Of a stretch of DNA of 64,000 nucleotides, positions 6,955-60,194 are shown in pieces. Both the position numbers and the translations under genes were made by a program. Below the pieces are notes generated by a model. The model was not told where the DNA came from and searched no databases. It saw only the letters and a program-made list of their open reading frames with translations. The first letter of the stretch is position 1. The number at the start of each line of letters is the position of its first letter. The stretch lies in contig OZ024745.1 of assembly GCA_964016885.1 (NCBI GenBank), positions 84,878,001 through 84,942,000 of the forward strand. Direction: 5' to 3'. Source of the DNA: Eledone cirrhosa. Taxonomy: Eukaryota.

Positions 6955-8487
6955 CTTGTAGGGGACTGTTCCACCCATAGGCTACCTATCTATCTGGGTT
7001 ATGGGTTGGGGGGAGTTATAGTCAAGGAGGGGTATGTCTAGGTGGGGGTTGTGTAATATATGTTACGTCTATGTGCTAGGTTTAAAATAGAAGAAGGAAC
7101 ACAGGATTTTGTGTTGGCAAGAGGAGAAAATTTCCGATTTCCTGTTAAGCAGGTTAAGTTTAGAGTGTATTATGGTATGGCATTCTAGTAAACACAGGTC
7201 ACAACTCCCGCTCTGCGTTCGGCATGGCGTGGATCTAGTAAGCTTCCTCCAAAAAAGTTTGTATGGGGTATTATTATTTTTTAAAAAGGAGATGTATCCC
7301 GCCAGTGAGGTGGCATTCTTATGTCTATCGTGTCTAAATGTGCACATATGCGCGTTATATCTAGTTTTAAATGTATTGGACGTTGATCCTATATATGTTT
7401 TGGTAGAGTTGTGTGTGGTTACGTCACATGCATATACGATGTTTTTCATGAGGCAAGCCCCCCTTAGGGGACAGTTACTACTCTGCCTACAATTGCAACT
7501 GCGGGTTCGATCAGTTAGCGTACCTCCCGAACTTTGGTTACTAGCATTATCACTAGGTGCCTCTATATCATTAGATGGCTCAGTGATGCTATTATGTTGC
7601 CTATTTTCCAGTGTAGTCCGTTGCTGGTGGTTAACTGCCATTTTAATTGTTTCGAAACCTTCCCTAGTTTTCCTAATGTTCGTGCGTGCTAGGTGTGATG
7701 CGAAGTTAGGTGTGGTCGAATAGATAATTTAATCACGTTTTTGTTAATTATGTTGCGATATCTATTGCCTGGTGGGAAGTTTTTTTCTAATAATAAGAAG
7801 AATACTCTGGGGAGGTTAGGGAGGACCTCAGAGTTAAAAGGTGGGTTAAAATACATGTTTTTCCTTCTTCTATTTTTGTTATCTGTGGGGTGAGTCTCAT
7901 TACTGTGTGTACTATTTTGTAGGGTTCCGTTATTAACGTTAGTGGCGTTGTCTGTTTTGCTTATGCCCGGATGGTTTATATTCATGGCATGATCATTTGC
8001 TGCTTTAGAGTTGTGGTGAGGGACTCTAGTATTGTCTCTACGTGGTTTACATTTAGCTGGGTTACCGCCATTAGGGTTCTTACTATTATTCTTGCCTCTA
8101 CGTTGGTTAGGCTTTGTGGCCATACTATGTGTGATTATGTTGGTAGGTTTCACACTCATGGTTTGGGAGTCCTTATGTATATATGATAATCTATTCCCGT
8201 AACCAGATTCTGCTAGGGCCTTGTCATAATACTCTGCATTGGAGTTGAAGATACTCTCATTACAGGACAGTCTGGTAATTCTATTAGAGACCCCCTTGGG
8301 AATAGCATTTAGGACTGATTTGGGGTGGTTGGAGCTGGCGTTTACATATGTTAGTCTATCATTAGGTTTATGGTAGGGTTTATATACGGCTCTGCTCCAA
8401 AGCATAGAGCTAATTATTATGCTGCCAATACCTTAATGGGACACGGGTATACAATACCTAACTCCTATTAACCTAAGTATATATATG

Positions 8488-8584
<97 letters not shown>

Positions 8585-8699
8585 GTATAATTTAGAGTAC
8601 AAAACCTACAACAAATGCATTACAAACGAAATCTCTAAAATATACAAAACATCAACATGAGAAAACCTAGCACACATAAACAAACAGGCGAAAACAATA

Positions 8700-13811: not shown

Positions 13812-13880
<69 letters not shown>

Positions 13881-13886
<6 letters not shown>

Positions 13887-16800: not shown

Positions 16801-18095
16801 TCCTTTTAATCCTATTACTTTCCCTTATTTCTGTGATTTCTGTGCTACTGTCATTACTTGTTTTCTATGTCTGTGTGTTTGTTAAGATTGTGGTGGTGGT
16901 GAGAGGCATTGAATGTGTGTGTGTTGTTGTTGTTGATGTGTGCTGTTGTTGATGTGTGTTGTTGTTGTCTCCGTGTGTGTTATTATTGTTGTGTGTGTTG
17001 TTATTGTTGTTTGTGTCTGCGTGTCTGTTGTTGTTGTTTCTGGGTATGTTATTATTGTTGTTGTTGTTGTTGTTGTTATTGTTGTTGTTGTTGTTGTTGG
17101 TGTGTGTGTTGTTGTCATTGTTGTTTGTGTCTGTGTGTCTGTTGTTGTTGGGATGTGTGTTGTATATGTGTGTGCGTATATTGTTACTTTTGTTTTTGTT
17201 TTTGTGGCTCCAGCGTAGTTTTGTAAATGATTTTTCTATTTCTGACAGACAACTAATCATATTTACCTTCTTGAATGTCGCAAATTTCGGTGGTAGACGT
17301 AATACAGATAACTCATCGTCATCTATTACCGTGTTGCCGTATATATTTGTGTTGTTGTTGTTGTTGTTGAACTCATCTGTTAATGAGGTGTCGGCCATAT
17401 TTATACCGTCAATTTTGTCGGGATATCTATTGGTATTCTCTACAGTATCCTGATTTAGCTTAATCTGCTTAAGCCACTTTAGTTTCTTGTTAAAGTGCTT
17501 ATCACATTCTTGAGTAATGTACTGTACTTCAGGACGTATAAGGCTTATAAATATTAGTTTCTCTCTTGGTGTGGTCATCCTAGCTATTTCTTGTATTAGG
17601 TTATGCTTATGTTTTTCTTGATGACTTAATTCTCTATAGATCTTCTTTTTTATGTTTAGAATTAGTGTTCGTTTTAGCCTATCTGCTTGTTTTTTGGTGA
17701 GTTGTAATCTTCTTACGTCGGTGTTGATGGTGTTGGTGTAAACTCGGGACGAGGCATATTCTTTTATGAAGTGTAGTTGTCGAGATGTTATGGTTTTTCG
17801 TAGAACATGGTGGTTTTCAGTATCTTGTTAGCCTGGCTAAGGCTTACGACATTTCGTTTCTGAATTTGTTTAGCAAGATTCTTTATTTGAAATCGTGTGT
17901 TGAAACCGATATTGTTATACTTTGGGAGGGTCATGTTGCCAATACAAAACACACGCACCAGTTGCTTTCATTTTCAATTTATTATAATAAATTTATAATA
18001 AATTTATAAATTTATAAATTTCTGGTTGGTTGGTTGGTTCCACAACCAGATAGTTGTTTATAAATTTTCATAGTTCTTTCGTCACACACTCTGTG
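13881..18095 (-). mobile_element. Full-length decayed PLE, 'family B', with pseudo-LTRs at both ends
   Basis: Broken ORFs 16865-17578, 15830-16714 (PTDKSG, LYGLRKDHK), 15157-15858 (SLYPSI, YSRYVDD), 14665-15120, GIY-YIG ~14260-14640; pLTR repeated at 13881-14060 and 17910-18095; 3' HHR core mutated (CUAAAGA). Confidence 0.92.
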
Positions 18096-18100
18096 CGTGT

Positions 18101-19168
18101 GTGACTTCCAAACATCTGATCCACCGAAGCTCGATCGTTTCGGACCATACCAAAATCAACATACTGATTGCGGATTTGGTACGGGTGATGAGAAACGTGT
18201 CCCGCATGTGCAACCCCGAAGACCTAGAGAGACACATACAACACTTCATCCACCGTATGCAGTTCTCTGGCTACAATCAGAGAGATAAAATCAGATTGTA
18301 TAGAGGAGCCAGAACCAAATGGGAAAAAATGGTAAATAATGACATAAATGGGACCTGCCCCTTGTATAGGAGCAAATTTTGGAATAGAATAGAAAGAACT
18401 AGGAACAAGGCTAATAGAATAAACTCATGGTATGATAGCAATAAATACCAGAGTGTAATGTTCATCGATACAACCCCTAGAGGGGTATTAGCTTACAAAT
18501 TTAGAAGGGCCCTAAACAAACATAAGATAGTAAAGAATCATCTGTACTCTACCAACATGCTAAAATAGAACACAAAGTTAAATTAGAGAACATAGAAATA
18601 AAAATAGAATCTACACACAGAAAAGACGCAATCTTTAGACAAATCACAGAGGCAATAAACATAAAAGAATTACAACCAAAATTAAATAGACAATATGAGT
18701 GGAACAGAACATCACAACTTACAATTAAGGACAAAATGAAAACACACACACACATAGAACAAACAACCAACCAGTAACATGTAAATAAACAAATAAATAA
18801 ATGAACATAAACTGACACAGACACCCGGATGTGGCGCATGCGCAGACTGAGCACACAACAGACACACAGAAACAAAATGGCGTAGGACAGAACAAAGGAG
18901 AGGCACAAAAACAAAGAAAGAAATCCCCAGTCACTGAAGAGGTCACAGAGTGTGTGACGAAAGAACTATGACAATATATAAACAACTATCTGGTTGTGGA
19001 ACCAACCAACCAACCAGAAATTTATAAATTTATTATAATAAATTGAAGTGAAAGCAACTGGTGCGTGTGTTTCTTATTGGCAACATGACCCTCCCAAAGT
19101 ATAACAATATCGGTTTCAACACACGATTTCAGATAAAGAAATTTGGTAAACAAATTCAGAAACGAAAT

Positions 19169-19169
<1 letters not shown>
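18101..19169 (+). mobile_element. Inverted 3' portion of family B PLE joined to the 5' end of the previous element; internal deletion in EN
   Basis: ORF 18101-18568 nearly identical to 14665-15120; pLTR with HHR. Confidence 0.92.
18929..18973 (+). ncRNA. Minimal hammerhead ribozyme (family B)
   Basis: GUCA-CUGAAGA-G-GUCACA-GAGUG-UGUGAC-GAAAG-AA-CUA-UGAC. Confidence 0.8.
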
Positions 19170-19260
<91 letters not shown>

Positions 19261-19265
<5 letters not shown>

Positions 19266-19775
19266 CTAAATAAAGATGGCGTAGAAAATACAATGCAACA
19301 GGAGGAAACAATAGCACCACTGACGATGTTGCAGATGTGCAACGAAAGAACTTTGATAAACTATATATATGTGTTTGTGTCTATATTGTATCTGTATTAT
19401 TTTTGACCGTTGGTCAGTCAATGGCAACATTGAGGACTGAATAAATTAGATTACCGATATAAAAGACACAGAAGCGAAAAGCGAAAACCAACCAAACAGT
19501 GAGTGTGTTCTGTTATTAATTCTGGCAATATTATACAATACTATACAAATAAGGGCGGTGGATTGGCAGTATCGGTAGAGGGTCGGACGCCATGCTTTCA
19601 AGCATAGTTACGTCCCTTTACGATCTGAGTTCAAATCCCGCCGAGGTTGACTTTGCCTTTCATCCTTACGGGGTCAATAAAATAAAGTACCAGTAATGCA
19701 CTGGGTATTTGCTGGCCTTGTGCCTAAAGTAGAAACAAATATTATACAAATATGACCCTCCCCAAGTATAACATT
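19261..19775 (+). mobile_element. Solo pLTR of a diverged family-B relative, interrupted by a SINE
   Basis: aagatggcg motif, HHR 19316-19357 (CUGACGA-U-GUUGCA-GAUG-UGCAAC-GAAAG-AA-CUU), ends in atgaccctccccaagtataaca like family B. Confidence 0.7.
19551..19740 (+). mobile_element. tRNA-derived SINE
   Basis: A/B boxes; flanking duplication tatacaaata. Confidence 0.9.
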
Positions 19776-19910: not shown

Positions 19911-22890
19911 TTTAAATAGCAGATTAAAGTTTAAGCAAAGAATCGCTGCTTTCACCCTTAACGGGCTCTTCTGAAACTAACAAAGTCTATCTGTAAACGC
20001 AGAACTGGATATTTCAAAAAACGTTGCAACCGGAGGAAGACAGGAAGACGATACTTTGGTTCGTGGAAACGTTCGCTGGCAAAGAACGGGAAAAAACGAA
20101 TATAATACGTCATTAACAGGAGCGGTGAAAAACAATTACGCGCAAAGACAGAACCACGTTAATGGTATAAAAGAGGTCGTAGACTAATGTTCTCTTAGGT
20201 GGTGCAGAGAGACGTTCTCTGGCAATAAGGATCACAAATCCGATTTTCCGAACAACCCCTCTATTCGGCTCATTAACCCTACGAAGTCCGATTTAGGTAG
20301 ACTTAGTAAAACGATTCTTGATAGAATTATACCTGAAATTAGAAGTTTGGCCCCTCTTGCACTGTGGAACAATTCTTTCGCGGTGATTGATTGGTTCAAC
20401 GGCATATGTAACAAGGAACATTGCCGTTTTATCCAATTCGACATCAACATTTACTACTCCTCCATCACTTTACCACTTCTCCTTAGAGCTGTCAATTTCG
20501 CTAAAACACTCACAGTGGTTAAGGATTTCGAAGTTGATGTCATCCTCAATGCCCGAAAGTCGGTGATTAATTTCGACGACTCTATTTGGATGAAAAAATC
20601 CAATAGTACCCCATTCGACGTGAGTATGGGCGCCAGTGATTCTGCGGAGGTCACTGATCTTATTGGCCTTTTCCTTATTTTCTCTATCAAGGACGAATTC
20701 CCCAACGCGGGCGGTGGTTTGTACCGTGACGATGGTCTTTTGACCATGACTAAGTGCGGACCTCGTGCTTGCGACAGGTTCAGAAAAGAACTCACAGCCT
20801 TCTTTAAAGGCTTCAACCTCTCTATACAGGTTGAGGCCAATCTCTCGGTCGTTAATTACCTCGACGTTACCCTCAATTTATTGAATGGGTTGTATTACCC
20901 GTATAGAAAGCCGAATGATATGCTTAATTACATAAGTAAGCATTCCAACCATCCTGCCAGCATAACCAAGAACCTGGTAAGAAACGTTTCGTTGAGGCTT
21001 TCCCGTCTTTCCACCAACGAACGTATTTTCAACGACCATTCCACTTATTACAATGATGCTCTTGCTTGAAGTGGATTTTGTCGATAAGGTAGCATATACA
21101 GAGTACGAAAATAGACCTAGAAGTAATAGACCCCGTCGCATTTGTTGGTATAACCCACCATATAATATGGAGGTCGCCACACCATTAGCTAAGCTCTTTC
21201 TTTCCCTTATTACGAAGCATTTTCCCCCTACACATAAATATAGTAAAATTTTTAATAGAAATACTATTAAAATTTCTTACTCTACGACTCCTAACCTTGC
21301 ACATAACATCACAGCTTCAAATTTAGCTAAACCGTAGGAACACGTGCAACCCTGTAGTTAGTAGTAACTGTAATTGCAGGAATCGGGCTGATTGCCCCCT
21401 ATCCGGGAAATGCCTCTCTAGTAACATTGTCTACAAATGTAAGGTTGTAACACCCACGTCCCGTAGGGCATACATAGATTTAACCGCCAATAGTTTCAAG
21501 CAGCGTCTTTACATGCATACCCATTCTTTTCGTTACCCTCTAAGAAGGAATATGACGTCACTTTCAGCTTATATCTGGAGTCTGAAAGATAACCACACCC
21601 AATATAAGTTACACTAGGAGATCCTAGCTAGGGCTAGATCGTATAACGGAAATAAAAGACCATGTGACCACTGCGCCGCTGAGGCCCTGGAAATATTCTA
21701 CGCCACAGACCACATCTTAAACAAAAAATCTGAGGCAATTCCGGCTTGTAAACATAAATTGCACAAAGCTTTCCTGTATTACAGCCCCACGTTATACCCT
21801 AACGGGTAGTACGATCTATACGTGGATATTTTACGTCTTGATGTGGGAGCTAAGTATATGTTTTGTTTATACCTTTACTTATTTGCATAGGTAAGGTATA
21901 TATTACCCGTTTGTTTTGTGAAGGTACGTATACCTTCTCGTACGTATATTTGATTGTTATGGTGTATAATTTTATATATTCTGGTACATATGGTTTGGCT
22001 ATGTGTATACGGGAGTTTTGCGTCTGTGTGAGTATGCAGGATCGTACGTATGGTGGGTGTGTGTATATGTGTACTTCATGTTTTGGTTGACTTTCGTCTC
22101 CGAACATTCGTGTGTTTATATGAAGGTATGTGTGTGCGCTTGTTATATACGTATTTATTTATTTATATACCTTTATATAATTATTTATTTATTTGTATAC
22201 ACGCATACACATACACACATATTTATATGTGCGGGGTTTTGTATAACTATGGTAAGTTTTTGCGTATGCTCGTGTATGTACGTTTTCTTTTGCATGTATG
22301 TATTTATTTGTTTCTATTACTTCTGTATTGTATTTATTTACTTTTTTCATAACTCTGTAGCGGCGATTCATTTGTTCTCCTTGTTAGAATTTTAGTCTAC
22401 GACTTCGGCTATACCATTTACGTGGTTTTGTCTTTGCGTGCTACTGTTCTCCACGCTCCACATATGACGTATTATCTTCGTTTTTTCGTTCATTGCCAGA
22501 GAACGTCTCTCTGCACCATCTAAGAGAACATTAGTCTACGACCTCTTTTATACCATTAACGTGGTTCTGTCTTTGCGCGTAATTGTTTTTCAGCGCTACT
22601 ATTAATGACGTATTATATTCGTTTTTTCCCGTTCTTTGCCAGCGAACGTTTCCACGAACCAAAGTATCGTCTTCCTGTCTTCCTCCGGTTGCAACGTTTT
22701 TTGAAATATCCAGTTCTGCGTTTACAGATTGACTTTGCTAGTTTCAGAAGATCCCGTTAAGGGTGAAAGCAGCGATTCTTTGCTTAAACTTTAATCTGCT
22801 ATTTTAATAAATATTTGCTCTACGGTTCTTATATATTTGATATATATTTATCCTTATCGAGCCCTCTTTGGATTTTAGTCTTCAAATTTA
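19911..22890 (+). mobile_element. 5'-truncated PLE (YRDD type) with inverted pLTR at its 5' end
   Basis: RT 20230-21069 (GGGLYRDD), 21053-21337, GIY-YIG ~21365-21790 with stops; 19911-20223 is the reverse complement of ~22494-22810. Confidence 0.92.
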
Positions 22891-22897
22891 TTATTAT

Positions 22898-25020
<2,123 letters not shown>

Positions 25021-25057
25021 ATCTATGTATATATATATGTATATATATATCTATATC

Positions 25058-27734: not shown

Positions 27735-27917
<183 letters not shown>

Positions 27918-29097
27918 AGAGAAAAACACAATGGAAAGCATCCAGCAAAAAGCAAACTCCATCCACCAGAGCATTAGTGTTACTATAGACTACCCAAGTA
28001 GACACCCCAACCATCGATTACCTGTACTAGACACAGAGCTCTGGTTAGATACCATTAACAACCAAAAACAAATCCTCTATTCCCATTATGCCAAACCCAT
28101 GACTTCCAAACATCTGATCCACCGAAACTCGGCCATTTCGGACCATACCAAAATCAACATACTGATTGCGGATTTGGTACGGGTGATGAGAAATGTGTCC
28201 CGCATGTGCAACCCAGAAGAACTAGAGAGACACATACAACACTTCATCCACCGTATGCAGTTCTCTGGCTACAATCAGAGAGATAGAATCAGAGTGTATA
28301 GAGGAGCCAGAACCAAATGGGAAAAAATGGTAAATAATGACATAAATGAGACCTGTCCCTTGTATAGGAGCAAATTTTGGAATAGAATAGAAAGAACTAT
28401 GAACAAGGCCAATAGAATAAACTCATGGTATGATAGCAATAAATACCAGAGTGTAATGTTCATCGATACAACCCATAGAGGCGAACTAGCCTACAAATTT
28501 AGAAGGGCCCTAAATAAACATAAACTCAATATTAAGATAGTAGAAAGACCAGGTACCTCCGTAAAAACACTTATTAGCAAGACATACCCGTTTCAAAGAC
28601 CCTCATGTATAGATAAGAAATGTATAACCTGTAAAATAAGCCCCCATATTAACTGTAAAACTAGAAATGTAGTGTATAGCATAAGATGTACTGAAGGACA
28701 ATGTAGAAACAATAATATAGTGTACATAGGTGAGACAGCTCGTAGTATAGGGGAACGAATAAATGAACACTGGCGAGACCTTCAAGATAATAAAGAATCA
28801 TCTGTACTCTACCAACATGCTAAGATAGAACACAAGGGTAAATTAGAGAACATAGAAATAAAAATAGAATCTACACACAGAAAAGATGCAATGTTTAGAC
28901 AAATTACAGAGGCAATAAACATAAAAGAATTACAACCAAAATTAAATAGAAAATATGAGTGGAACAGCAACATCACAACTTACAATTAAGGACAAAATGA
29001 AAACACACACACACATAGAACAAACTACCAACCAATAACATGTAAATAAATAAATAAATAAACAAGTAGATAAATGAACACAAACACACACAGACAC

Positions 29098-29156
29098 CCG
29101 GATGTGGCGCATGCGCAAACTGAGCACACAACACACACACAGAAACAAAATGGCGT
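29098..29156 (+). promoter_or_regulatory. Putative pLTR promoter motif cluster (ETS-, NRF1- and YY1-like)
   Basis: CCGGATGT, GCGCATGCGCA and AAAATGGCG 50-110 bp upstream of the HHR; largely retained in other family B copies. Confidence 0.5.
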
Positions 29157-29201
29157 AGGACAGAAGAAAGGAAAGGCACAGAAACAAAGAAAGGAATTCC
29201 C

Positions 29202-29246
29202 AGTCACTGAAGAGGTCACAGAGTGTGTGACGAAAGGACTATGACT
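29202..29246 (+). ncRNA. Minimal hammerhead ribozyme (family B)
   Basis: AGUCA-CUGAAGA-G-GUCACA-GAGUG-UGUGAC-GAAAG-GA-CUA-UGACU. Confidence 0.85.
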
Positions 29247-29554
29247 ATATATAAACAACTATCTGGTTGTGGAACCAACCAACCAACCAGAAATTTATAA
29301 ATTTGTAGATTTGTAAATTTATAAATTTATAAATATATAATAAATTGAAGTGAAAGCAACTGGTGCGTGTGTTTCTTATTGGCAACATGACCCCCCCAAA
29401 GTATAACTATATACATATGTATATATATATATAAATATGTATTCTGTCTCTTATATATTCCATGTGCCATTACCAACCTCAATTTTCTCTATAACCTTCG
29501 TTTTGTGTAGAAAATTACACTTTTCATATATACTAACCTACGCAAATCCGGAAA

Positions 29555-30820
29555 ATGGCACTGGAACAAGACAACACCACTTCAAACTCCAATATCAATG
29601 AGGAAATCCTGAAAATCCTAAAAGAGATAAATGGAAAACTCACCATTCTGACAAAAAAACAGGATATACCCCAAACCACCACACCGACTGACAACCAAAT
29701 TTATTTAAACGTTCAAAACGTATGCAACTCCATCGAAAAACTTATGAATACCAACACAGAACAAACGACATTGCTCCATATCAAAAACCAAATGGGACAC
29801 CTCTGGAAAAAACATCTAAACACCAGAAAATTCACTTTCTGGAATATGATAAAAAACCTCAACAAAGCTGGAATTTACCAAAAATGGATTAACTCAACAC
29901 CGATAGTTTTACCACGTAAATTCCAAATAAAGCATATTACCAACGAACCTGAACCAGAAAGAAAACTCCGTGAACAAATGTCACTCAACAGGATAAACAT
30001 GGAAATAGAACTCCTAAAATTAAGGGCCACCTCAAACGAGCAAGAGTATAAGGATACTGATAAAAATATGGAGGAAGAATGCACTAAAAAGGCCGAGGGA
30101 ACAACCCTACAAAATTTAATCAAATCGTGGAAACAGGACTGCGAGAATGCAGAAACTATTTCCCTTAAACGGTGGGAAAAATCCGAAAACTGGTTCCTCA
30201 AATATGAAGAAGACTTTAAAAGGACGCACCAAACAGGTAACCCCTTTATAAAGCATTTGAACATAACAAGAACTACAACAGACACATTTACACCACCAAA
30301 CCCAACACACACTAACCACAGGCACATCCCCCACCAACACAAACCAAATACGGCCAACTACACCAAAAGAAACACACCCAACCACCACAACACAGGTTTC
30401 CGTAGAAATGCCCCCTACATAAACCAACGACGAAATAACATAGATCCAACTCACAACACACACACCACATTCCTCAGAAGAAATCCACCCAGGCCACTTG
30501 AAATCACAACAGAACTTACCCACAACCACACCAGACATCACCCTCAATCCAACAAAAGACAACCCCCCAGCCTCAACACTCTGTACCACAGAAATAACGC
30601 ACCCAGACCACATGAACCAACAACAGAACCCTTGCTCATCAACAACCACAACACATACCACCCCCACCATCACATTCACCCTCATGAAACAACAAGCTAC
30701 AGACCCACACGCAACAGACCAACAAAATATAATCACACACAAAACTACATTCCTTTTTTAGGGAAAAGCCTGAAATACCAGGATACTCGATGGCCCCTCC
30801 TCAGGAGAAACCAAAAATAA
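29555..30820 (+). CDS. PLE ORF1: helical/coiled-coil-like N-half and H/T/N/P-rich low-complexity C-half
   Basis: 421-aa ATG-started ORF directly after the terminal repeat, overlapping ORF2. Confidence 0.85.
   Translation: MALEQDNTTSNSNINEEILKILKEINGKLTILTKKQDIPQTTTPTDNQIYLNVQNVCNSIEKLMNTNTEQTTLLHIKNQMGHLWKKHLNTRKFTFWNMIKNLNKAGIYQKWINSTPIVLPRKFQIKHITNEPEPERKLREQMSLNRINMEIELLKLRATSNEQEYKDTDKNMEEECTKKAEGTTLQNLIKSWKQDCENAETISLKRWEKSENWFLKYEEDFKRTHQTGNPFIKHLNITRTTTDTFTPPNPTHTNHRHIPHQHKPNTANYTKRNTPNHHNTGFRRNAPYINQRRNNIDPTHNTHTTFLRRNPPRPLEITTELTHNHTRHHPQSNKRQPPSLNTLYHRNNAPRPHEPTTEPLLINNHNTYHPHHHIHPHETTSYRPTRNRPTKYNHTQNYIPFLGKSLKYQDTRWPLLRRNQK
30754..30760 (+). other. Putative -1 ribosomal frameshift heptamer U_UUU_UUA
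   Basis: CCT TTT TTA GGG AAA in the ORF1 frame; the -1 frame is open from 30733 into ORF2. Confidence 0.8.
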
Positions 30821-33066
30821 TCAACCTCTCAAAGACACCTCTAACCAACACACAAATCAACATTTTAAGTAAGGGCCTGAAATTTACACCTACACCACGT
30901 AAACCAAACTTCCCCGAAATGAAGGATGACATCATGGAATACTGCCGAAAGCTGCGACTAACGGAATTCTTCCACAACGACACCAACACTGAAGACGAAT
31001 CACTGGTTAGAAATAAAAGCAATTTCTGCCCACAAAAGGGAAGAAATAAAGCACTGGACACGTACTGCGAACACATCACCAACTTTCCCTATGAAACAAT
31101 TACAAATAAACACACGAAATCAAACCTATCTACACACGAATGGGAAGAATTATTCACACTTAGAAACAACCCTGAGATAACTATCAAAGAAGCCGATAAA
31201 GGCAGTACTGTTGTGATTATGAATACGGACTACTATAGGACCCTCGCACTTAACATTTTAGAAAACAACACATACTATGAAAAAACAGAAAACTACAAAC
31301 ACACCAAAACAATGGGGAACCTTTTGACCTTACTGAATAAATACCGCAACAGCTTAACCACAAAAGAGTTTAACTATATAAGCCACTTCAAATGCAATAC
31401 AAGCTCTTTTTACGGCTTACCGAAACTTCACAAATGTAAACCCATAAACGATGCATGTGACACCTCAACCAACAATTACATTGAACTAACACCACCAGAA
31501 GACCTAAAACTCAGGCCAATTATAGCAGGCCCTACATGTGAAACCCACAGACTTAGCAACTTTCTGGACATCCTACTGAAACCCTTTCTACAACATATAC
31601 AGAGCTACATACGAGATGACCTTGACATGCTGAAACACCTCCCTAAAACAGTAAGTGCAAATACAATTCTTGTCTCCTTTGACGTAATAAACCTCTACAC
31701 AAACATACCTCACAACTATGGAATAACAGCAGTCCAATACTGGCTTAACACACACCCATCAGAAATACCGACACGCATCAACACAGATTTTATCACTGAC
31801 GGACTCCGCTTTATCCTACAAAATAACTACTTCACATTCAATGGTTCAACATACAGACAAGTATCAGGTACGGCAATGGGCACGAAAGTAGCACCCACAT
31901 ATGCCAACCTAGTCATGGGATTCCATGAACAACAAATATACAGTCAGTCCCTTCTCTTATTTGGAGACTCTTTCCACACACACCTCAAAGCCAATTGGAA
32001 AAGATATCTAGACGACTGCTTTATCCTATGGCAAGAAGACATGAACTCACTTACTACGTTTAAAAACATGATAAACAACATAGATAATAACATACAATTC
32101 ACAATGGAATCCAATCCTAAGGAATTAGCCTTCTTGGATATTCTCATCTCTGTAATAGACGGGAAATTAGATACAGATATATTCTATAAACCCACAGATT
32201 CCAAGCAATACCTCTTTTTCACATCAAGTCACCCAAAACATACAAAACTTAACATTCCTTACAATTTGGCCAAACGTATATGTACCATAGTATCAGATCC
32301 ACCTAAACGGGAGCAAAGACTAAAGGAACTAAAAGACACCCTTATCTTAAGAGCCTTTCCACTTGAAATAATCAACAATGGAATAGACAGGGCAAAACAC
32401 CTAAATCCCCATCAACTTAACAATCCAAAACAGAAAACCACACTCAACACCCTGCCATATGTATCCACTTTCAACCCCAGAAATACCGAAATGTTTGATC
32501 ACCTACACAAAAACCTCCCCATCCTACTTAAAGATGTAAAAATGAAGTCTATTCTTGAAACACACAAGATCCTTAAAAGTAAAAGACAACCCAAATCACT
32601 TAAACGCATTCTCACTGGACCAAATATACCCAAACCAATCCTCAACCCTACAGTTACCAAATGTGGTAGAACAAACTGTGGAACGTGCCTCTACCTCACT
32701 GAAGGACAAACATTTACATTCAAAGATGGCCAAACATTTACAGTAAAAAACAATTTCACCTGCAACTCGGAGAACTTGATTTACGCAATAACTTGCGGTG
32801 GGTGCAAACACAACTACATAGGACAGACGGGCACCTCATTACGCAAAAGAATGACCATCCACCGCCAACAAATCCGGGACGCTAACACAAGAAAAATCCC
32901 CTTGAGCAGCCATATTGCGAACTGCGCAGGAATGACACTACCCAACTTTAAAATCTTCCCCTTCTACAAGTGCTCAGATTCGTTCACACAACAACAAAGA
33001 ATAAACAAAGAAAATCTATTCCTTAACAAATTTAAACCAAAACTAAACGGGTTATCACCCCAATAG
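30790..33066 (+). CDS. PLE reverse transcriptase + GIY-YIG endonuclease (ORF2)
   Basis: 758 aa: ADKG, FYGLPKLHK, RPII, SFDVINLYTNI, GTAMG, WKRYLDD, CGRTNCGTC linker, NLIYAITC..C...YIGQT. Confidence 0.97.
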   Translation: MAPPQEKPKIINLSKTPLTNTQINILSKGLKFTPTPRKPNFPEMKDDIMEYCRKLRLTEFFHNDTNTEDESLVRNKSNFCPQKGRNKALDTYCEHITNFPYETITNKHTKSNLSTHEWEELFTLRNNPEITIKEADKGSTVVIMNTDYYRTLALNILENNTYYEKTENYKHTKTMGNLLTLLNKYRNSLTTKEFNYISHFKCNTSSFYGLPKLHKCKPINDACDTSTNNYIELTPPEDLKLRPIIAGPTCETHRLSNFLDILLKPFLQHIQSYIRDDLDMLKHLPKTVSANTILVSFDVINLYTNIPHNYGITAVQYWLNTHPSEIPTRINTDFITDGLRFILQNNYFTFNGSTYRQVSGTAMGTKVAPTYANLVMGFHEQQIYSQSLLLFGDSFHTHLKANWKRYLDDCFILWQEDMNSLTTFKNMINNIDNNIQFTMESNPKELAFLDILISVIDGKLDTDIFYKPTDSKQYLFFTSSHPKHTKLNIPYNLAKRICTIVSDPPKREQRLKELKDTLILRAFPLEIINNGIDRAKHLNPHQLNNPKQKTTLNTLPYVSTFNPRNTEMFDHLHKNLPILLKDVKMKSILETHKILKSKRQPKSLKRILTGPNIPKPILNPTVTKCGRTNCGTCLYLTEGQTFTFKDGQTFTVKNNFTCNSENLIYAITCGGCKHNYIGQTGTSLRKRMTIHRQQIRDANTRKIPLSSHIANCAGMTLPNFKIFPFYKCSDSFTQQQRINKENLFLNKFKPKLNGLSPQ

Positions 33067-35423: not shown

Positions 35424-38530
<3,107 letters not shown>

Positions 38531-38589
38531 TTGGGTAAATCTACACTTATTTTTACCTTGTATATTATTAAACCAAGAAAAAACAGAGG

Positions 38590-40960
<2,371 letters not shown>

Positions 40961-41799: not shown

Positions 41800-41893
41800 G
41801 TATATGTATGTATTTATATATATGTGTGTGTATGTATATAAATATATATATATATATGTATGTATATATATATATGTATGTATATATATATAT

Positions 41894-43629
41894 ATCATAA
41901 ATCATGTCTTTAGAATTATTAGATAAAATATATACCGTTTCTTCTTCCAATTAGCATAATTAACCATATAAAAAATCAATTAGACCAAGCTATAAGAAGA
42001 AAGGCTCTTATGAAGAAATCTTCGACAAATAACCGAAAGTGGCCTCTTCGCGGTGGCCCCAATATAGTATATTTATCCAACATTTCAACAGCATGTGGAA
42101 ACTGACTAAATATATCATCAGCCATACACAATTAGGTGTAAAATTAAACTCAGAAGAAACGTGTACATACCGTAATTATATCTCTACCATGGTTTCATCC
42201 GTATTTTTAGACATCCAATTAATAGGAATGTCCTGAGTTAGGATTCATCAGGAGACAAACTCAAAATCAGACATCTAGTTTTTCAACCTGATCGCGCCGA
42301 AATTAGATTCAAAAATGGCTAAGAATCGCTATGTGGCTGTGGTCAAGCTAGAAAGAATGTGATTGTCTGCTTACGGCGGGTAGGCTTGTTGCTAGAAAGC
42401 GCAGCCAAATGTCGCCAAATTTAATCTCAACCTCACGGGAGATTATTAAATATAAAGTTTTACATATACATAAAGTTATAGATATATATGTTGCAACCGG
42501 TCACTTTTAAGCTCTATGAAGTATTAATAAATTAAATAATCAGAGAAATATATCATAAATCATGTCTTTAGAATTATATGATATATTGCTCTGATTATTT
42601 AATTTATTAATTCTTCATAGAGCTTAAAGGTGACCGGTTGCAACATATATATTTATAACTTTATGTATATGTAAAACTTTATATTTAATAATCTCCCGTT
42701 AGGTTGAGATTAAATTTGGTGACATTTGGCTGCGCTTTCTAGCAACAAGCCTACCCGCCGTAAGCAGCCAATCACATTCTTTCTAGCTAAACCACAGCCA
42801 CATAGCGATTCTTAGCCATTTTTGAATCTAATTTCGGCGCGATCAGGTTGAAAAACTAGATGTTTGATTTTGAGTTTGTCTCCTGATGAATCCTAACTCA
42901 GGACATTCCTATTAATTGGATGTCTAAAAATACGGATGAAACCATGGAATAGATATAATTACGGTATGTACACGTTTCTTCTGAGTTTAATTTTACACCT
43001 AATTGTGTATGGTTGATGATATATTTAGTCAGTTTCCACATGCTGTCGAAATGTTGGATAAATATACTATATTGGGGCCACCGCGAAGAGGCCACTTTCG
43101 GTTATTTGTCGAAGATTTCTTCATAAGAGCCTTTCTTATTATAGCTTGGTTTAATTGATTTTTTATATGGTTAATTATGCTAATTGGAAGAAGAAATGGT
43201 ATATATTTTATCTAATAATTCTTTAGAATAATTTATGATATATTGCTCTGATTATTTAATTTATTAATTCTTCATAGAGCTTAAAGGTGACCGGTTGCAA
43301 CATATATATCTATAACTTTATGTATATGTAAATGTTAATAATCTCCCGTTAGGTTGAGATTAAATTTGGCGACATTTGGCTGCGCTTTCTAGCAACAAGC
43401 CTACCCGCCGTAAGCAGCCAATCACATTCTTTATAGCTTGACCACAGCCACATAGCGATTCTTAGCCATTTTTGAATCTAATTTCGGCGCGATCAGGTTG
43501 AAAAACTAGATGTCTGATTTTGAGTTTGTCTCCTGATGAATCCTAACTCAGGACATTCCTATTAATTGGATGTCTAAAAATACGGATGAAACCATGGTAG
43601 AGATATAATTACGGTATGTACACGTTTCT
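41894..43629. mobile_element. Inverted + tandem array of a ~658-bp non-coding HHR unit (retrozyme-like)
   Basis: Copy A 41894-42576 (HHR on minus), inverted copies B 42577-43222 and C 43232-43629 (HHR on plus). Confidence 0.85.
42180..42256 (-). ncRNA. Hammerhead ribozyme of the 658-bp unit (copies 42878-42954+, 43528-43604+, 48238-48314-, 48896-48972-)
   Basis: GUCUC-CUGAUGA-AUCC...GGAU-GAAAC-CAUG-GUA-GAGAU; canonical core, palindromic stem III. Confidence 0.9.
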
Positions 43630-43637
43630 ACAAAGAG

Positions 43638-44696: not shown

Positions 44697-44710
44697 AATG
44701 TATATATATA

Positions 44711-44814
44711 TATCATAAATCATGTCATATATATCATAAATCATTCTAAAGAATTATTAGATAAAATATATACCGTTTCTTCTTCCAATTAGCATAATTA
44801 ACCATATAAAAAAT
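44711..44814. repeat. Fragment of the 658-bp unit, duplicated at 47931-48034
   Basis: Matching sequence including the private variant tcatgtcatatatatcataaatcattctaaag. Confidence 0.85.
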
Positions 44815-44827
44815 ATATATATATATG

Positions 44828-44907
<80 letters not shown>

Positions 44908-45025
44908 TTAATAAGAGGAATTCCAACTTTGTCTGATTTACTCGTTTTATTTACAATCCTTTAAAATATATATAATGGTATTATAATGAAATAGTATGAT
45001 AGAATATTAAATTCTAAGTGTTAAT

Positions 45026-45064
45026 TGAACAAGTACTTTCATGCTTTCGCAATCTTCAGGTTCA
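45026..45064 (-). ncRNA. Minimal hammerhead ribozyme
   Basis: UGAAC-CUGAAGA-UUGC-GAAA-GCAU-GAAAG-UA-CUU-GUUCA. Confidence 0.82.
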
Positions 45065-45439
45065 TGATATGTGGTGACAGTCGAGTTTGCAATTTTCAAC
45101 TGTAATGAGATGGGTAAATTTCCTACCTTTTATACATTTTATACAGAGAAAAGTGGCTCCAGAATGCAAAGCCCTGTAAACTGTATTTCGACCAATCAGT
45201 GTGTAGTTTCACTGAATTACTACAGCTGATTGGTTTAAGCGTCACGGCTGGTTGAGCATGCTAACGACCAATAGTCATATCCAACGTATCAATTGTTTTG
45301 CTTTTTTGAAATGATGAAAATAGCATTTTCTATTAATCATCACCATCAACATCACTTTTATTATCATTATTATTGTTGTTGTTGTTGTTGTTAGTGGTCG
45401 TGGTCATAGTGGTAGTAGAAGTAATACCCCTAGGCGTTA

Positions 45440-47626
45440 TTATTGTTCATTTAGCTTGGGTTTGAATTTATCAATAAAATTCTTTTCTTTGATTTTTCTC
45501 TTGATTTCATTTGGGCTGTGTAATTTGTAGAATGGGAATATTATAAATATTCCCTGACCACATGTTGCCAGGTGGCCGCTTAGGGGTATCTGACGGACAT
45601 TTGGGTCTCTGATTTGTTGACGGTGTACCCGTGCACGTTCCGATAGTGCATTTCCAGTTTGACCGACATATAGTTCTTCACAATTCGGGCATTTAATGCA
45701 GTAAATTAGATTTCTGCTTTTGCAGTTCATATTTGCATTTGTGAATATTTTTCCAGTTTTTGTTTTCATATATTGACCGGCGTGTATGGATTGACATGTG
45801 CCGCATCGATTATCATTGCATTTAGATACAGTGAATGATTGGTCTTTGTTGTTAAGGTCAAACTTTGCTTTTGTTAGCAATTGCTTCAAATTTTTTGGCT
45901 GTCTTTTACTAAGAGTCAAAGATCGATCTGTGATTAAGCCTTTTAATTCATTACTTTGAGCAATGATCGGTAGGTTTGCTTTGGCAGTGTTGAAGATATT
46001 CTGGTGACATGGGTTGTGTGTCATTATAAATGGTATGACCAGTTCTTGGTTTCTTCTTCTTTGGGTTGTTCTAAGTTGTTGTATAGGTATTTTTATAGCC
46101 CGCTGTATGCCATTTTCTATAAGTAGAGATGGGTATTTTTGTTTGAGCAAAAATTCTCTTAGTTCTGTTAGGCGTTTGTACCTGGTATTCGTATCTTCTA
46201 CAATGGTACAAATTCTTCTGGCTAGGCAGTATGGGATGTTGCGTTTTGTATGAGGTGGATGGCACGACTTAAAATTCAGATATTGATGGGTGTCTGTGTG
46301 TTTATAATATATATCCGTGGTAATGGTGGTGTCGTTTTTGATTATCATTATATCTAGGAATGGTAATTTGGTCCTACTCATCTCTTTTGTGAATTGGAGA
46401 GATGGGTGTAAGTTATTCAGGAGGATATTGAACTCATCCAGAGTATCTAGAGATTCTGTCCAGATGATGAAACAGTCGTCAAGGTATCTCTTCCAAGATT
46501 TTTCAATGTACTTTCTAAAGTCAGTACTATATTTTTCCTCTATTTCTTGGTAGAGTTGTTGTTCTAAGTATCCCATTACAGAGTTCGCGTAAACGGGAGC
46601 AAACTTCGTTCCCATCGCTGTGCCTCTAATTTGGATGTAATTCTTTCCATTGAAGAAGAAAGTGTTGTTTTCCAGAATAAGTTTAACTGCGTCTAATATA
46701 AATGGCGCTGTGAATCTAATGGGAATCACTTCTCTATGTTTTTCCACCCAGTATTTAACCGCCTTTATTCCTAAATCATGTGTAATGTTGGTGTAAAGGC
46801 TTACCACATCAAAACTGAGTAGAAGTGAATTCGTTTCCGTGGTTTTGGGAAGATGGGACAGGAAGTCGATATCATCCCGGATGAAACTGGGTATGTGAAT
46901 ACATAGTGGTTTCAAAATAATGTCAACAAAATTGCTTAGACGGTGAGTGGGGCATGTTGGACCAGCTATAATAGGTCTAAGTTTTAAGTCTTTTGGGTGT
47001 AATAATTTAATGTACTCACTGTTTTGTTCTCTTACTGCCAGTTGTATTTCTTTTGACTTGTGAACTTTCGGTAGGCCATACAGGTTGCTGGGTTTCGGCT
47101 CAAAATTGGTGATGTAGTCTCTTTCCTTATCAGTAAATGAGTTGTGGTATTTTGAAGCCAGGTTGTTGATCTTCTTCATGATGTTGTGGTCTATATTTGA
47201 CGGTATTTCATGATAGAATGTTGTGTCTTTCAGTTGTTCCTCAACCAAATCCTTGTAGTATTCAGTATCCATTATAACAACTGCACCCCCTTTATCTGCT
47301 TGTTTAATTATTATTGTTTTATCATTTTGTATACGTTTAAGTGCAGACATTTCTGATTTGTTAATGTTTGGCCTAACATTAGTATTATGTCTAAGAGGAA
47401 ATTTAGACAGGATGTCAATGTATTGGTCGAGATAGATATTTCTTCCTTTTGGCGGAGTGAAATTTGATTTATTCTTTACTAGTGATTCATCACTCTCATT
47501 ATTTTTATCAGCGAAGAATTCTACAAGACGTAATTTTCGACAGAATTCTTGGGTATCCTCCTTCAGTTCTTGGTGGTTGACTGTTGGAGTCGGTGTGAAT
47601 TTCAGTCCTTTTGACAGAATTTGCAT
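45440..47626 (-). CDS. PLE reverse transcriptase + GIY-YIG endonuclease
   Basis: 728 aa: ADKGG, LYGLPKVHK, SFDVVSLYTNI, GTAMG, WKRYLDD, CNDNRCGTC, NLIYCIKC..C...YVGQT; collinear with 30790-33066. Confidence 0.96.
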   Translation of the reverse strand: MQILSKGLKFTPTPTVNHQELKEDTQEFCRKLRLVEFFADKNNESDESLVKNKSNFTPPKGRNIYLDQYIDILSKFPLRHNTNVRPNINKSEMSALKRIQNDKTIIIKQADKGGAVVIMDTEYYKDLVEEQLKDTTFYHEIPSNIDHNIMKKINNLASKYHNSFTDKERDYITNFEPKPSNLYGLPKVHKSKEIQLAVREQNSEYIKLLHPKDLKLRPIIAGPTCPTHRLSNFVDIILKPLCIHIPSFIRDDIDFLSHLPKTTETNSLLLSFDVVSLYTNITHDLGIKAVKYWVEKHREVIPIRFTAPFILDAVKLILENNTFFFNGKNYIQIRGTAMGTKFAPVYANSVMGYLEQQLYQEIEEKYSTDFRKYIEKSWKRYLDDCFIIWTESLDTLDEFNILLNNLHPSLQFTKEMSRTKLPFLDIMIIKNDTTITTDIYYKHTDTHQYLNFKSCHPPHTKRNIPYCLARRICTIVEDTNTRYKRLTELREFLLKQKYPSLLIENGIQRAIKIPIQQLRTTQRRRNQELVIPFIMTHNPCHQNIFNTAKANLPIIAQSNELKGLITDRSLTLSKRQPKNLKQLLTKAKFDLNNKDQSFTVSKCNDNRCGTCQSIHAGQYMKTKTGKIFTNANMNCKSRNLIYCIKCPNCEELYVGQTGNALSERARVHRQQIRDPNVRQIPLSGHLATCGQGIFIIFPFYKLHSPNEIKRKIKEKNFIDKFKPKLNEQ

Positions 47627-47749
47627 TTCATCATTGTCAAGATCTCTTTTAGATAAATTAATTATTTTAGGATCTATCTACGTGTACAGCTGTTTTGGGT
47701 ATGTTTCCTCCTGGAGTTTTTCTTTTTCCGGTTTTTGTTGTCCTGACGT

Positions 47750-47756
47750 TAAAAAA
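47750..47756 (-). other. Putative -1 frameshift heptamer U_UUU_UUA
   Basis: CAT TTT TTA in the open ORF1-remnant frame, ~90 nt before PKIINLS. Confidence 0.72.
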
Positions 47757-47930
47757 TGAATTTTTCTCTGTTCAGGATTTATATTCCTGTTGGTGTTCGC
47801 TTGATAAACTTTTGGTCGTGATATTATATTTGGTTTCGTTATGTATTTTGTCCTATTTTTGGTATTCTGTATATTATTTTTCTTCCTGTTAGCATTATTT
47901 TTAACAATCTGGGAAAATGACCTATATATA

Positions 47931-48989
47931 TATCATAAATCATGTCATATATATCATAAATCATTCTAAAGAATTATTAGATAAAATATATACCGTTTCT
48001 TCTTCCAATTAGCATAATTAACCATATAAAAAATCAATTAGACCAAGCTATAAGAAGAAAGGCTCTTATGAAGAAATCTTCGACAAATAACCGAAAGTGG
48101 CCTCTTCGCGGTGGCCCCAATATAGTATATTTATCCAACATTTCGACAGCATGTGGAAACTGACTAAATATATCATCAACCATACACAATTAGGTGTAAA
48201 ATTAAACTTAGAAGAAACGTGTACATACCGTAATTATATCTCTACCATGGTTTCATCCGTATTTTTAGACATCCAATTAATAGGAATGTCCTGAGTTAGG
48301 ATTCATCAGGAGACAAACTCAAAATCAGTCATCTAGTTTTTCAACCTGATCGCGCCGAAATGAGATTAAAAAATGGCTAAGAATCGCTATGTGGCTGTGG
48401 TCAAGCTAGAAAGAATGTGATTGGCTGCTTACGGCGGGTAGGCTTGTTGCTAGAAAGCGCAGCCAAATGTCGCCAAATTTAATCTCAACCTAACGGGAAA
48501 TTATTAAATATAAAGTTTTACATATACATAAAGTTATAGATATATATGTTGCAACCGGTCACCTTTAAGCTCTATGAAGAATTAATAAATTAAATAATCA
48601 GAGCAATATATCATAAATCATGTCTTTAGAATTATTAGATAAAATATATACCATTTCTTCTTCCAATTAGCATAATTAACCATATAAAAAATCAATTAGA
48701 CCAAGCTATAAGAAGAAAGGCTCTTATGAAGAAATCTTCGACAAATAACCGAAAGTGGCCTCTTCGCGGTGGCCCCAATATAGTATATTCATCCAACATT
48801 TCGACAGCATGTGGAAACTGACTAAATATATCATCAACCATACACAATTAGGTGTAAAATTAAACTCAGAAGAAACGTGTACATACCGTAATTATATCTC
48901 TACCATGGTTTCATCCGTATTTTTAGACATCCAATTAATAGGAATGTCCTGAGTTAGGATTCATCAGGAGACAAACTCAAAATCAGACA
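47931..48989 (-). mobile_element. Tandem 1.6 copies of the 658-bp HHR unit
   Basis: Exact 658-bp period (48097 vs 48755); two intact HHRs. Confidence 0.88.
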
Positions 48990-49035
48990 TATATATGTAT
49001 ATATGTATATATATATATGTATATATGTATATATA

Positions 49036-50754: not shown

Positions 50755-55263
<4,509 letters not shown>

Positions 55264-58346: not shown

Positions 58347-58468
58347 GTATAAATATATATATATATATATATATATGTTTATATATATATATATATATAC
58401 ATATATATATACACATATATATACATATATACATATAGATACATATATATATATAAATATATGTATAT

Positions 58469-58499
<31 letters not shown>

Positions 58500-58507
58500 G
58501 ATATGTA

Positions 58508-58543
<36 letters not shown>

Positions 58544-58544
58544 C

Positions 58545-58600
<56 letters not shown>

Positions 58601-58601
58601 G

Positions 58602-60058
58602 CATTGTTATACTTTGGGAGGGTCATCTTGCCAATAAGAAACACACGCACCAGTTGCTTTCACATCAATTTATTATATATTTATAAATTTATAAATTTAC
58701 AAATCCACAAACTTATAACTCCACAAACTTATAAATTTCTGGTTGGTTGCTTGGTTCCACAACCAGATAGTTGTTTATATATAGTCATAGTCCTTTCGTC
58801 ACACACTCTGTGACCTCTTCAGTGACTGGGGATTCCTTTCTTTGTTTCTGTGCCTTTCCTTTCTTCTGTCCTACGCCATTTTGTTTCTGTGTGTGTGTTG
58901 TGTGCTCAGTTTGCGCATGCGCCACATCCGGATGTCTGCGTGTGTTTGTGTTCATTTATCTATTTGTTTATTTATTTACATGTTGTTGGTTGGTTGTTTG
59001 TTCTATGTGTGTGTGTGTTTTCATTTTGTCCTTAATTGTAAGTTGTGATGTTGCTGTTCCACTCATATTTTCTATTTAATTTGGTTGTAATTCTTTTATG
59101 CTTACTGCCTCTGTAATTTGCCTAAACATTGCATCTTTTCTGTGTGTGGATTCTATTTTTATTTCTATGTTCTCTAAGACCCTCATGTATAGATAAGAAA
59201 TGTATAACCTGTAAAATAAGCCCCCATATTAACTGTAAAACTAGAAATGTAGTGTATAGCATAAGATGTACTGAAGGACAATGTAGAAACAAAAATATAG
59301 TGTACATAGGTGAGACAGCTCGTAGTATAGGGGAACGAATAAATGAACACTGGCGAGACCTTCAAGATAATAAAGAATCATCTGTACTCTACCAACATGC
59401 TAAGATAGAACCCAAGGGTAAATTAGAGAACATAGAAATAAAAATAGAATCCACACACAGAAAAGATGCAATGTTTAGGCAAATTACAGAGGCAATAAGC
59501 ATAAAAGAATTACAACCAAAATTAAATAGAAAATATGAGTGGAACAGCAACATCACAACTTGCGATTAAGGACAAAATGAAAACACACACACACATAGAA
59601 CAAACTACCAACCAACAACATGTAAATAAATAAACAAATAGATAAATGAACACAAACACACACAGACACCCGGATGTGGCGCATGCACAAACTGAGCACA
59701 CAACACACACACAGAAACAAAATGGCGTAGGACAGAAGAAAGGAAAGGCACAGAAACAAAGTAAGGAATCCCCAGTCACTGAAGAGGTCACAGAGTGTGT
59801 GACGAAAGGACTATGACTATATATAAACAACTATCTGGTTGTGGAACCAACCAACCAACCAGAAATTTATAAGTTTGTGGAGTTATAAGTTTGTGGATTT
59901 GTAAATTTATAAATTTATAAATATATAATAAATTGAAGTGAAATCAACTGGTGCGTGTGTTTTTTATTGGCAACATGACCCTCCCAAGGTATAACAATAT
60001 CGGTTTCAACACACGATTTCAGATAAAGAATCTTGCTAAACAAATTCAAAAACGAAAT
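58602..60058. mobile_element. Inverted pair of family B PLE 3' ends (58602-59176 minus, 59177-60058 plus)
   Basis: GIY-YIG frame 59177-59569; intact HHRs at 58783-58827 (-) and 59774-59818 (+). Confidence 0.92.
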
Positions 60059-60099
60059 ATATATATGTATATATATATAAATATATGTATATATATATG

Positions 60100-60139
<40 letters not shown>

Positions 60140-60194
60140 TACTTATATATATATACATACATATATATATATACATACATATATATAAATATAT

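Follow-up and report, generated by a model that had tools for sequence, protein, structure and literature searches.

The question raised by this locus is how the reverse transcriptase (RT) of a Penelope-like element (PLE) is translated when it lies behind the stop codon of another ORF. In the window, that is, the whole stretch of 64,000 nucleotides that was analyzed, the RT ORF of an element on the minus strand follows the TAG of an ORF1 remnant in frame 0 of the assembled sequence, and the remnant carries a heptamer suited to -1 ribosomal frameshifting. It seems highly probable from the comparison of sequences that a tandem -1 slip on UUU UUR would give ORF1 alone plus a minor ORF1-RT-endonuclease (EN) fusion, and that an extra AGAT hides this layout in the present copy.

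The minus-strand element and its junction

The element (44909-47922, minus strand; 5' end at 47922) is a 5'-truncated Neptune-type PLE with an intact RT-GIY-YIG ORF, the label "Neptune-type" being used broadly because the tree described below holds unnamed loci only and thus does not separate Neptune from Nematis. It is probably a recent insertion. The N-terminal NLS, GxKF, and DKG motifs, YxDD, and the C-terminal GIY-YIG domain of EN-containing (EN+) PLEs all exist in one ORF, in which GIY-YIG scored above the cut-off (E = 3e-6) and RVT_1 below it (E = 2.7e-6), while the CCHH motif with CxxC between GIY and YIG is represented by YCIKCPNCEELYVGQT, HRQQI, and SGH. The CX2-5CxxC linker between RT and EN, which defines Neptune/Nematis according to excerpts of Craig et al. 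2021 (PMC8557442), is also present. Inspection of the region near the 3' end revealed a hammerhead-like motif composed of helix I (UGAAC/GUUCA), a CUGAAGA core, a short helix II, GAAA, and a palindromic GUAC, and a search of the 64-kb window, including this motif, against Rfam at gathering score gave no match. No second copy of the 3' UTR, as a pseudo-LTR or a partial tandem repeat, was found in the window, which is little informative for the family given the 5' truncation. Identity with Athena/Coprina, which are EN-, was ruled out by the GIY-YIG domain and by the end flank, which is (TA)n and not telomeric repeats. Among the matches listed, the closest named RT homologs come from bivalves and bivalve symbiont assemblies. 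The element therefore resembles the Neptune clade of EN+ PLEs (Arkhipova 2006, as cited in excerpts of Craig et al. 2021, PMC8557442) in its RT, linker, GIY-YIG with internal CxxC and two His, 3' hammerhead-like motif, (TA)n flank, and 5' truncation, but it differs from the texts, and from the canonical single-ORF organization, in that a separate, conserved ORF1 overlaps RT in -1 geometry.

Table 1. Features of the window, with positions counted from its first nucleotide
Feature	Position	Strand	Remarks
ORF1 3' remnant, ~81 codons, low-complexity N/K/R/Q tail	47678..47922	-	TAG 47680-47678 ends ORF1; matches P0218
Slippery heptamer U_UUU_UUA, ORF1 phase, Phe-Leu	47750..47756	-	Kept in relatives
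AGAT-AGAT tandem, one unit extra in this copy	47672..47679	-	Reads/contigs of other copies
RT + thumb + linker + GIY-YIG ORF, uninterrupted, 745 aa	45440..47677	-	Motifs IINLS, GLKF, DKG, QxxGTAMGT, YLDD
CX4CxxC linker zinc-finger-like motif, Neptune/Nematis type	45794..45820	-	Residues 620-628
Minimal type I hammerhead-like motif, 3' UTR	45026..45064	-	By eye against the description in PMC4209133
(TA)n tract at element 3' end	44815..44908		Sequence
112-bp flank copy	47923..48034		Exact repeat of 44703..44814
112-bp flank copy, identical	44703..44814		Exact repeat of 47923..48034
First element: full ORF1, 421 aa	29555..30820	+	Predicted helical core (pLDDT 92) followed by a low-complexity tail
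First element: U_UUU_UUA in ORF1 phase, then GGG	30754..30760	+	Sequence
First element: RT-GIY-YIG ORF, -1 frame	30733..33066	+	47.8% identical to that of the minus-strand element
Decayed divergent RT-endonuclease copies	1206-3788, 7069-8432, 23847-25022, 37337-38599	-	
Decayed divergent RT-endonuclease copies	8661-10776, 20188-21069	+	
Intact 1138-codon APE-endonuclease + RT ORF, non-LTR retrotransposon	51097-54513	+	

The window consists of eukaryotic DNA that is rich in microsatellites and crowded with retroelement fragments. The 112-bp repeat that flanks the element and its (TA)n tract lies within a copy of another repeat and is an unusually long candidate for a target-site duplication, which is its likely nature. 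A repeat family with tandem and inverted copies (~97% alike) occupies 41865-43635 and 47949-48993, has hammerhead-like cores at 42251, 48309, and 48967 (minus) and at 42883 and 43533 (plus), and has the appearance of pseudo-LTRs or of a non-autonomous element belonging to some other family. A distinct RT-GIY-YIG element, now decayed, is scattered over 13849-17827 (minus), 27917-29442 (plus), 18102-19266, and 58460-60160, and copies of its 3' end appear repeatedly together with a hammerhead-like core (18934, 29207, and 59779, plus; 58822, minus). At least six decayed copies of a divergent RT-endonuclease show YRDD, an unusual motif 4, and a CxC linker; compared by description only, they resemble the Hydra clade.

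At the junction of the minus-strand element, the ORF1 frame stays free of stops for 84 codons beginning at 47932, ~81 of them inside the element, and ends with EQRKIHFLTSGQQKPEKEKLQEETYPKQLYT at the TAG. The codons ATT CAT TTT TTA place U_UUU_UUA in the ORF1 phase, and the -1 frame reads FFNVRTTKTGKRKTPGGNIPKTAVHVD, reaches AGATAGAT at the tandem AGAT, and then stops. With four bases fewer, simple frame arithmetic puts the RT ORF in the -1 frame relative to ORF1, so that an X_XXY_YYZ heptamer exists in phase inside an ORF overlap. Across 18 related junctions, in-phase T6[AG] is found at 5 of the 15,031 in-phase positions of their ORF1 and RT coding regions, and from this background the chance of a heptamer in this 31-position overlap alone is ~0.01. 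The first-pass annotation of this DNA had described an ORF1 remnant of ~80 codons containing CAU_UUU_UUA, a -1 frame that meets a tandem AGAT-AGAT, and its joining, upon removal of one AGAT, to a downstream RT ORF with an IINLS-type motif, and the sequence bears out all of this.

The junction in other copies and in related loci

The same annotation expected the family to have a single AGAT, and other copies, judged from reads and contigs of four public runs aligned to 46900-48000, agree with it. The four letters at 47672 are absent in 64 of 67 raw reads of run X24 (six start places, which mean few molecules, as X24 is a reduced-representation (RAD) library), in four contigs of run X1, whose contig depth at 47678 is thereby fully explained (32/32), and in one contig of run X2. 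A second X2 contig, which is ~90% identical (24 other letters in 231), shows the net loss of four letters as 2+1+1, as does one X24 read. Run X7 covered the flank only. No record listed is shown to carry both AGAT units, up to two X24 reads and one X2 contig being ambiguous, and no heptamer change is found among the 40 of 225 differing places listed. Because the other copies have one AGAT, the family form has the -1 geometry; the extra AGAT is either private to this copy or an assembly error. Words of the element occur at a share of 0.6-0.8 in those of runs X1-X8 that bear three organism labels and at ~0.2 in the others, which suggests that the family is common to related hosts.

The window contains another element, hereafter the first element, with the same arrangement (Table 1). 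The earlier claim that the two share their layout despite unlike surroundings, and thereby support the frameshift independently, holds in its first part only: the heptamer is in both elements and the DNA around them is unalike (best blastn E = 0.016, over 15-20 bases), but their RTs are 47.8% identical and their ORF1s belong to one protein family. Since the elements are relatives, the shared heptamer is best regarded, on these identities, as deep conservation rather than independent origin.

A survey of related loci extends this conservation. Ninety-six loci were found, and the 65 in which the match reaches the start of the RT ORF were examined, with 30 loci lacking the junction and one duplicate left out. 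Among the 12 closest loci, L008 has too little upstream DNA, and 10 of the 11 others have an in-phase heptamer with ORF1 in the right frame, in the form of U_UUU_UUA in seven and U_UUU_UUG in three. The exception, L028, is decayed and has five T, with the RT frame broken after 91 codons, while its near-identical relative L004 has six. With L098, which was found later via ORF1 and shows the -1 geometry without T6[AG], the in-phase U_UUU_UUA/G is present in 10 of 12 informative close loci, or ~7 of 8 families. Six more distant loci, whose ORF1 includes an esterase, use U6A (four loci) or U_UUA_AAC (L015 and L021). By contrast, no in-phase T6[AG] exists upstream in the open RT frame of the 47 other PLE loci. 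The prediction that related PLEs have an in-phase heptamer upstream of the INLS motif was thus verified, and the clade-wide heptamer, together with the single AGAT of the copies, supports the view that the layout is a lineage feature rather than a mutation.

A quick tree of 46 rows with at least 230 uninterrupted residues divides into one side of 17 rows (SH-aLRT 99), comprising the minus-strand element, 15 frameshift-type rows, and L079, and another side of 29 rows with a single flagged row, L045 (UUUAAAU, 43 codons), which was treated as chance. The linker zinc finger follows the same split, being found in 7/7 full-length frameshift-type loci and in 0/17 long ORFs of the opposite side. The distance from the heptamer to the IINLS-type motif ranges from 57 to 198 nt, and the junctions are unalignable, yet the phase is kept. 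The RT frame opens 0-15 codons upstream of the heptamer in 18/18 junctions. Family-wide genome searches gave nothing new (0/122, and 1/184 that was already known), and no relative was found in viral contigs.

Several loci deserve separate mention. L038 and L061, which were not counted as support, are PLE-like RTs on long branches; they apparently lack endonuclease and have a long ORF upstream in -1 geometry as well as A_AAA_AAC-type sites. The heptamer overlaps an in-frame ATG of the RT ORF in L016 and L018. In the six esterase-type loci (L015-L019 and L021), an SGNH-fold domain (fold search E = 3e-7; best PDB sequence match 4c1b, an ORF1-encoded protein, E = 0.007) occupies the ORF1 terminus, immediately ahead of the slip site. 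L081-L098, of which L097 is a duplicate of L081, are animal retroelement contigs within bacterial genome bins (Bacteroidota, Campylobacteraceae, SUP05, and Poribacteria), most likely through host contamination.

The ORF1 protein family and the distance to its stop

The ORF1 core of the first element shares homology with the L002-L004 cores (E = 1e-31 to 2e-33), and a profile search yielded 991 protein clusters at E <= 0.001. The best 150 of these are 98-546 aa long and none continues into RT, while the best 120 of 618 RT homologs are 517-803 aa long, though lengths up to 1304 were allowed; no in-frame ORF1-RT fusion therefore exists among them. Word-seeded ORF1 searches, which carry little weight, gave two proteins without revealing any longer fused version. 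Structure prediction gives the core five long helices (pLDDT 92), whose structural matches are generic helical bundles only (best Z 9), with no Atlas match and no Foldseek match at E <= 0.001, and Pfam assigned no family to four ORF1 homologs at the same threshold, or to the ORF1 of the first element. The protein might be RNA-binding and self-associating.

The slip site has left its trace in these proteins. Among 96 ORF1 homologs whose tail beyond the core reaches 90 residues or more (54 shorter ones were dropped), Phe-Leu, the product of UUU UUR, occurs in the last 35 residues of 70 and in the preceding 35 residues of only six (Fisher p = 7e-23), whereas shuffles gave a mean of 8 and a maximum of 17, and the reverse dipeptide LF was found in 7. 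The 26 tails without FL in this range include some with FL at 37-42, some with FF, and some that are probably broken. The remnant in the window aligns with the C terminus of P0218 (37.5% identity over 80 columns, E = 7e-6 among 150 proteins), and Phe-Leu lies 25 residues from the end in the remnant as well as in P0218, P0239, and P0246. Given this match to P0218 and to a small subfamily ending in the same way, the remnant can be taken as a real ORF1 C terminus and the TAG as the natural ORF1 stop of the subfamily.

The mechanism proposed from these features is as follows. Most ribosomes would end at the ORF1 stop and produce a coiled-coil, basic-tailed structural protein, while a minority would slip back by one base, with tRNA-Phe and tRNA-Leu on UUU UUR, to produce ORF1-RT-GIY-YIG, and the product ratio would resemble that of gag/gag-pol. 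The copy in the window would make no fusion protein because its ORF1 start is absent and its -1 frame is closed by the duplication.

As for a stimulator of the slip, a simple folding search of the 18 junctions gave no conserved 3' hairpin or pseudoknot: z was below -2 in 3/18, strong downstream structure was seen in L001 and L033 only, and the 60 nt downstream in the minus-strand element fold at -3.4 kcal/mol (z +0.6). The interval between Phe-Leu and the ORF1 end, however, is far from random, being exactly 12 residues in 24 of the 70 proteins, against ~2 for each value of 13-35 and none below 12 (Poisson 4e-18 and 2e-9, assuming independent rows, although the rows are not fully independent). 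Twelve residues place the ORF1 stop exactly 30 nt past the heptamer, about one ribosome length, with the stop 11 codons past UUR. When the cores were re-delimited, 22 of 89 proteins fell into this 30-nt class, with a median core identity of 35% and tails of 91-187 residues. The last ten residues are unrelated between proteins of the class, and a peptide motif as the cause of the 12-residue end was rejected, as no column of these residues exceeds 7/22. On the FastTree tree, the 30-nt label needs 13 changes, at least nine of them forced by starred branches, and it is clustered relative to shuffles. At the DNA level, the spacing is found in L004, L005, L009, L011, L012, L033, and the esterase-type L017. 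The nucleotide that follows the stop is C, a weak termination context, in 5/7 of these 30-nt loci and in 0/8 loci with longer spacing (p = 0.007, related loci included).

One possibility, which we put forward tentatively and by analogy, is that in the 30-nt families this widespread clade of animal elements programs the -1 slip by a ribosome queue at the ORF1 stop instead of RNA structure. A spacing of about one ribosome length means that a ribosome pausing at termination may park the trailing one on the slip site. A monosome covers ~30 nt. Set beside this length, the human disome footprints of 60-64 nt (PMC12086091, in part) give 10-11 codons. In E. coli reporters, a heptad located 8-10 codons (peak 9) before a slow stop increases collision-driven -1 slip by the trailing ribosome with no RNA structure, as described in part of Smith et al. 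2019 (PMC6815119). Those constructs share with the present junctions the slippery heptad shortly before a stop, but they are engineered and bacterial, and the relatives here have a spacing of 11 codons from A-site to A-site, whereas the bacterial peak by analogy predicts 10. The queue also does not fit the minus-strand element (69 nt, 24 codons A-site to A-site), the first element (57 nt), or the esterase-type L015, L019, and L021, in which the ORF1 stop is 0-3 nt past the heptamer. Alternatively, a hairpin may simply precede the stop, as it does in L011 and L033, or the stop may aid refolding, as proposed for SARS-CoV-2 (PMC8168617). A hairpin stimulator is favored in L001 and L033, and in the minus-strand element neither queue nor hairpin is evident. 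A periodicity of the queue at two or three ribosome lengths (distances 22-25 and 32-33) was dropped in view of flat counts; the group at 24-25 is one subfamily with the stop within codons of a [VI]DPK motif and hence gives periodicity no support. No paper on this heptamer-to-stop spacing was among the matches listed for ribosome collisions in the literature outside subscription journals and Repbase notes. If the queue is real, this would be natural eukaryotic collision-stimulated frameshifting, and the ratio of enzyme to structural protein would depend on ribosome load and termination speed.

Rival readings, known systems, and meaning

The main rival is splicing, in which the T-tract (TTTTTTAG) acts as a 3' acceptor for the spliceosome and RT is translated from spliced RNA; splicing would likewise conserve phase. 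AG directly follows T6, as in TTTTTTAG, at 10 of 16 T6[AG] sites, the nearest AG is 6 nt on in the minus-strand element and 12 nt on in L081, in the same phase, and introns do occur in PLEs (PMC8557442, in part; PMC4209133). We nevertheless give splicing little chance, since L004, L009, L016, and L018 have their first AG 17-29 nt on and in another phase, L015 and L021 use another classic heptamer, about one-third of the ORF1 FL sites precede residues for which no codon begins with G, the tract consists purely of T6 and A/G and is always read as Phe-Leu, and the spacing of the ORF1 stop would be left unexplained.

It is also improbable that RT is made separately through reinitiation or an internal AUG near the start of its ORF, with the heptamer being secondary. 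An in-frame ATG before the IINLS-type motif exists in 6/18 junctions, including the first element (MAPPQEKPK), but 12/18 have none between the heptamer and the motif, and it is the heptamer that is conserved, not the ATG. The minus-strand element has a Met at residue 18 of P0001, before GLKF; a start there would lose the conserved IINLS motif, and the element has no stop-start overlap. Met starts of called proteins are no evidence either way, because a gene caller may write GTG/TTG starts as Met. An annotation that agrees with a separate start is that of a fish Neptune element with two non-overlapping ORFs (PMC12602865, in part).

A transcriptional frame change, in which polymerase stuttering on the T6 run adds a base, would suit a homopolymer run without a consistent RNA stimulator, and L028 shows that the run can lose a base. 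It is very unlikely all the same, as six T is short for stuttering, and only ribosomes are sensitive to the phase, to UUR as the second codon, and to the U_UUA_AAC variants. The assembled form itself, with ORF1, TAG, and RT sharing one frame, as read-through of the TAG or a nonsense mutation in a single long ORF would have it, is almost certainly not the functional one and is already refuted for the family by the one AGAT in other copies, the ORF1s of P0218, P0239, and P0246 that end at the same place, and the in-frame fusion missing from the homologs above.

The preferred -1 slip has precedents. Arkhipova and colleagues reportedly described in 2017 a T6A frameshift in Athena/Terminon elements and may mention Neptune; a coiled-coil ORF1 upstream of RT is joined to it by the frameshift there, as would be the case in the present elements. 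Athena, however, is without endonuclease, and no conserved pseudoknot was found in the present junctions. The HIV-1 gag-pol heptamer is UUUUUUA. The gag-pol -1 frameshift involves this heptamer plus a stem-loop (PMC12086091, in part), and the heptamer type and the structural-protein/enzyme logic are alike in the two systems, whereas our elements have no Gag fold, protease, integrase, LTRs, or consistent stem-loop. Judged by its sequence, the junction would thus work like gag-pol in an element that is not a retrovirus or an LTR element.

Among descriptions of PLEs, the abstract of Craig et al. 2021 (PMC8557442) terms EN+ PLEs single-ORF, and excerpts of PMC6431247 assign one ORF to PLEs with EN and two to those that lack it. 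In the former paper, the Fig. 1 legend speaks of an ORF1 of PLEs "separated by a frameshift with a pseudoknot"; it names no clades, so Neptune may already be covered, and one supplementary file of that paper had no relevant match. Esterases are noted in Neptune-like or Penelope-like elements in excerpts of PMC5408684 and PMC3905857 with no frameshift attached, the word being absent from the latter and used once in the former, about LTR elements. The six esterase-type loci share the -1 junction, whereas the ORF1 family of the minus-strand element is helical and without esterase. The accessible parts of PMC3846280, PMC5718144, PMC13159263, and 10.64898/2026.07.22.740005 hold nothing on the junction, and no paper describing the heptamer in EN+ PLEs was found in the literature on PLE frameshifting outside subscription journals and Repbase notes. 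That Neptune-type elements have a gag-pol-like -1 junction as a rule is possibly half-known to specialists.

What appeared as the oddity of one copy thus becomes a lineage rule: Neptune-type elements, usually annotated with one ORF, carry an unrecognized ORF1 family of 991 clusters without a Pfam family or a specific fold match. The -1 slip that they likely use is a gag-pol-like trait usually tied to retroviruses and LTR elements, and the annotation and expression of full-length Neptune-type elements should change accordingly. Within the literature covered (PMC6815119, in part), stimulation by a terminating ribosome has been shown with engineered bacterial reporters only, and junctions with the 30-nt spacing would be natural test cases for such stimulation of programmed frameshifting in animals.
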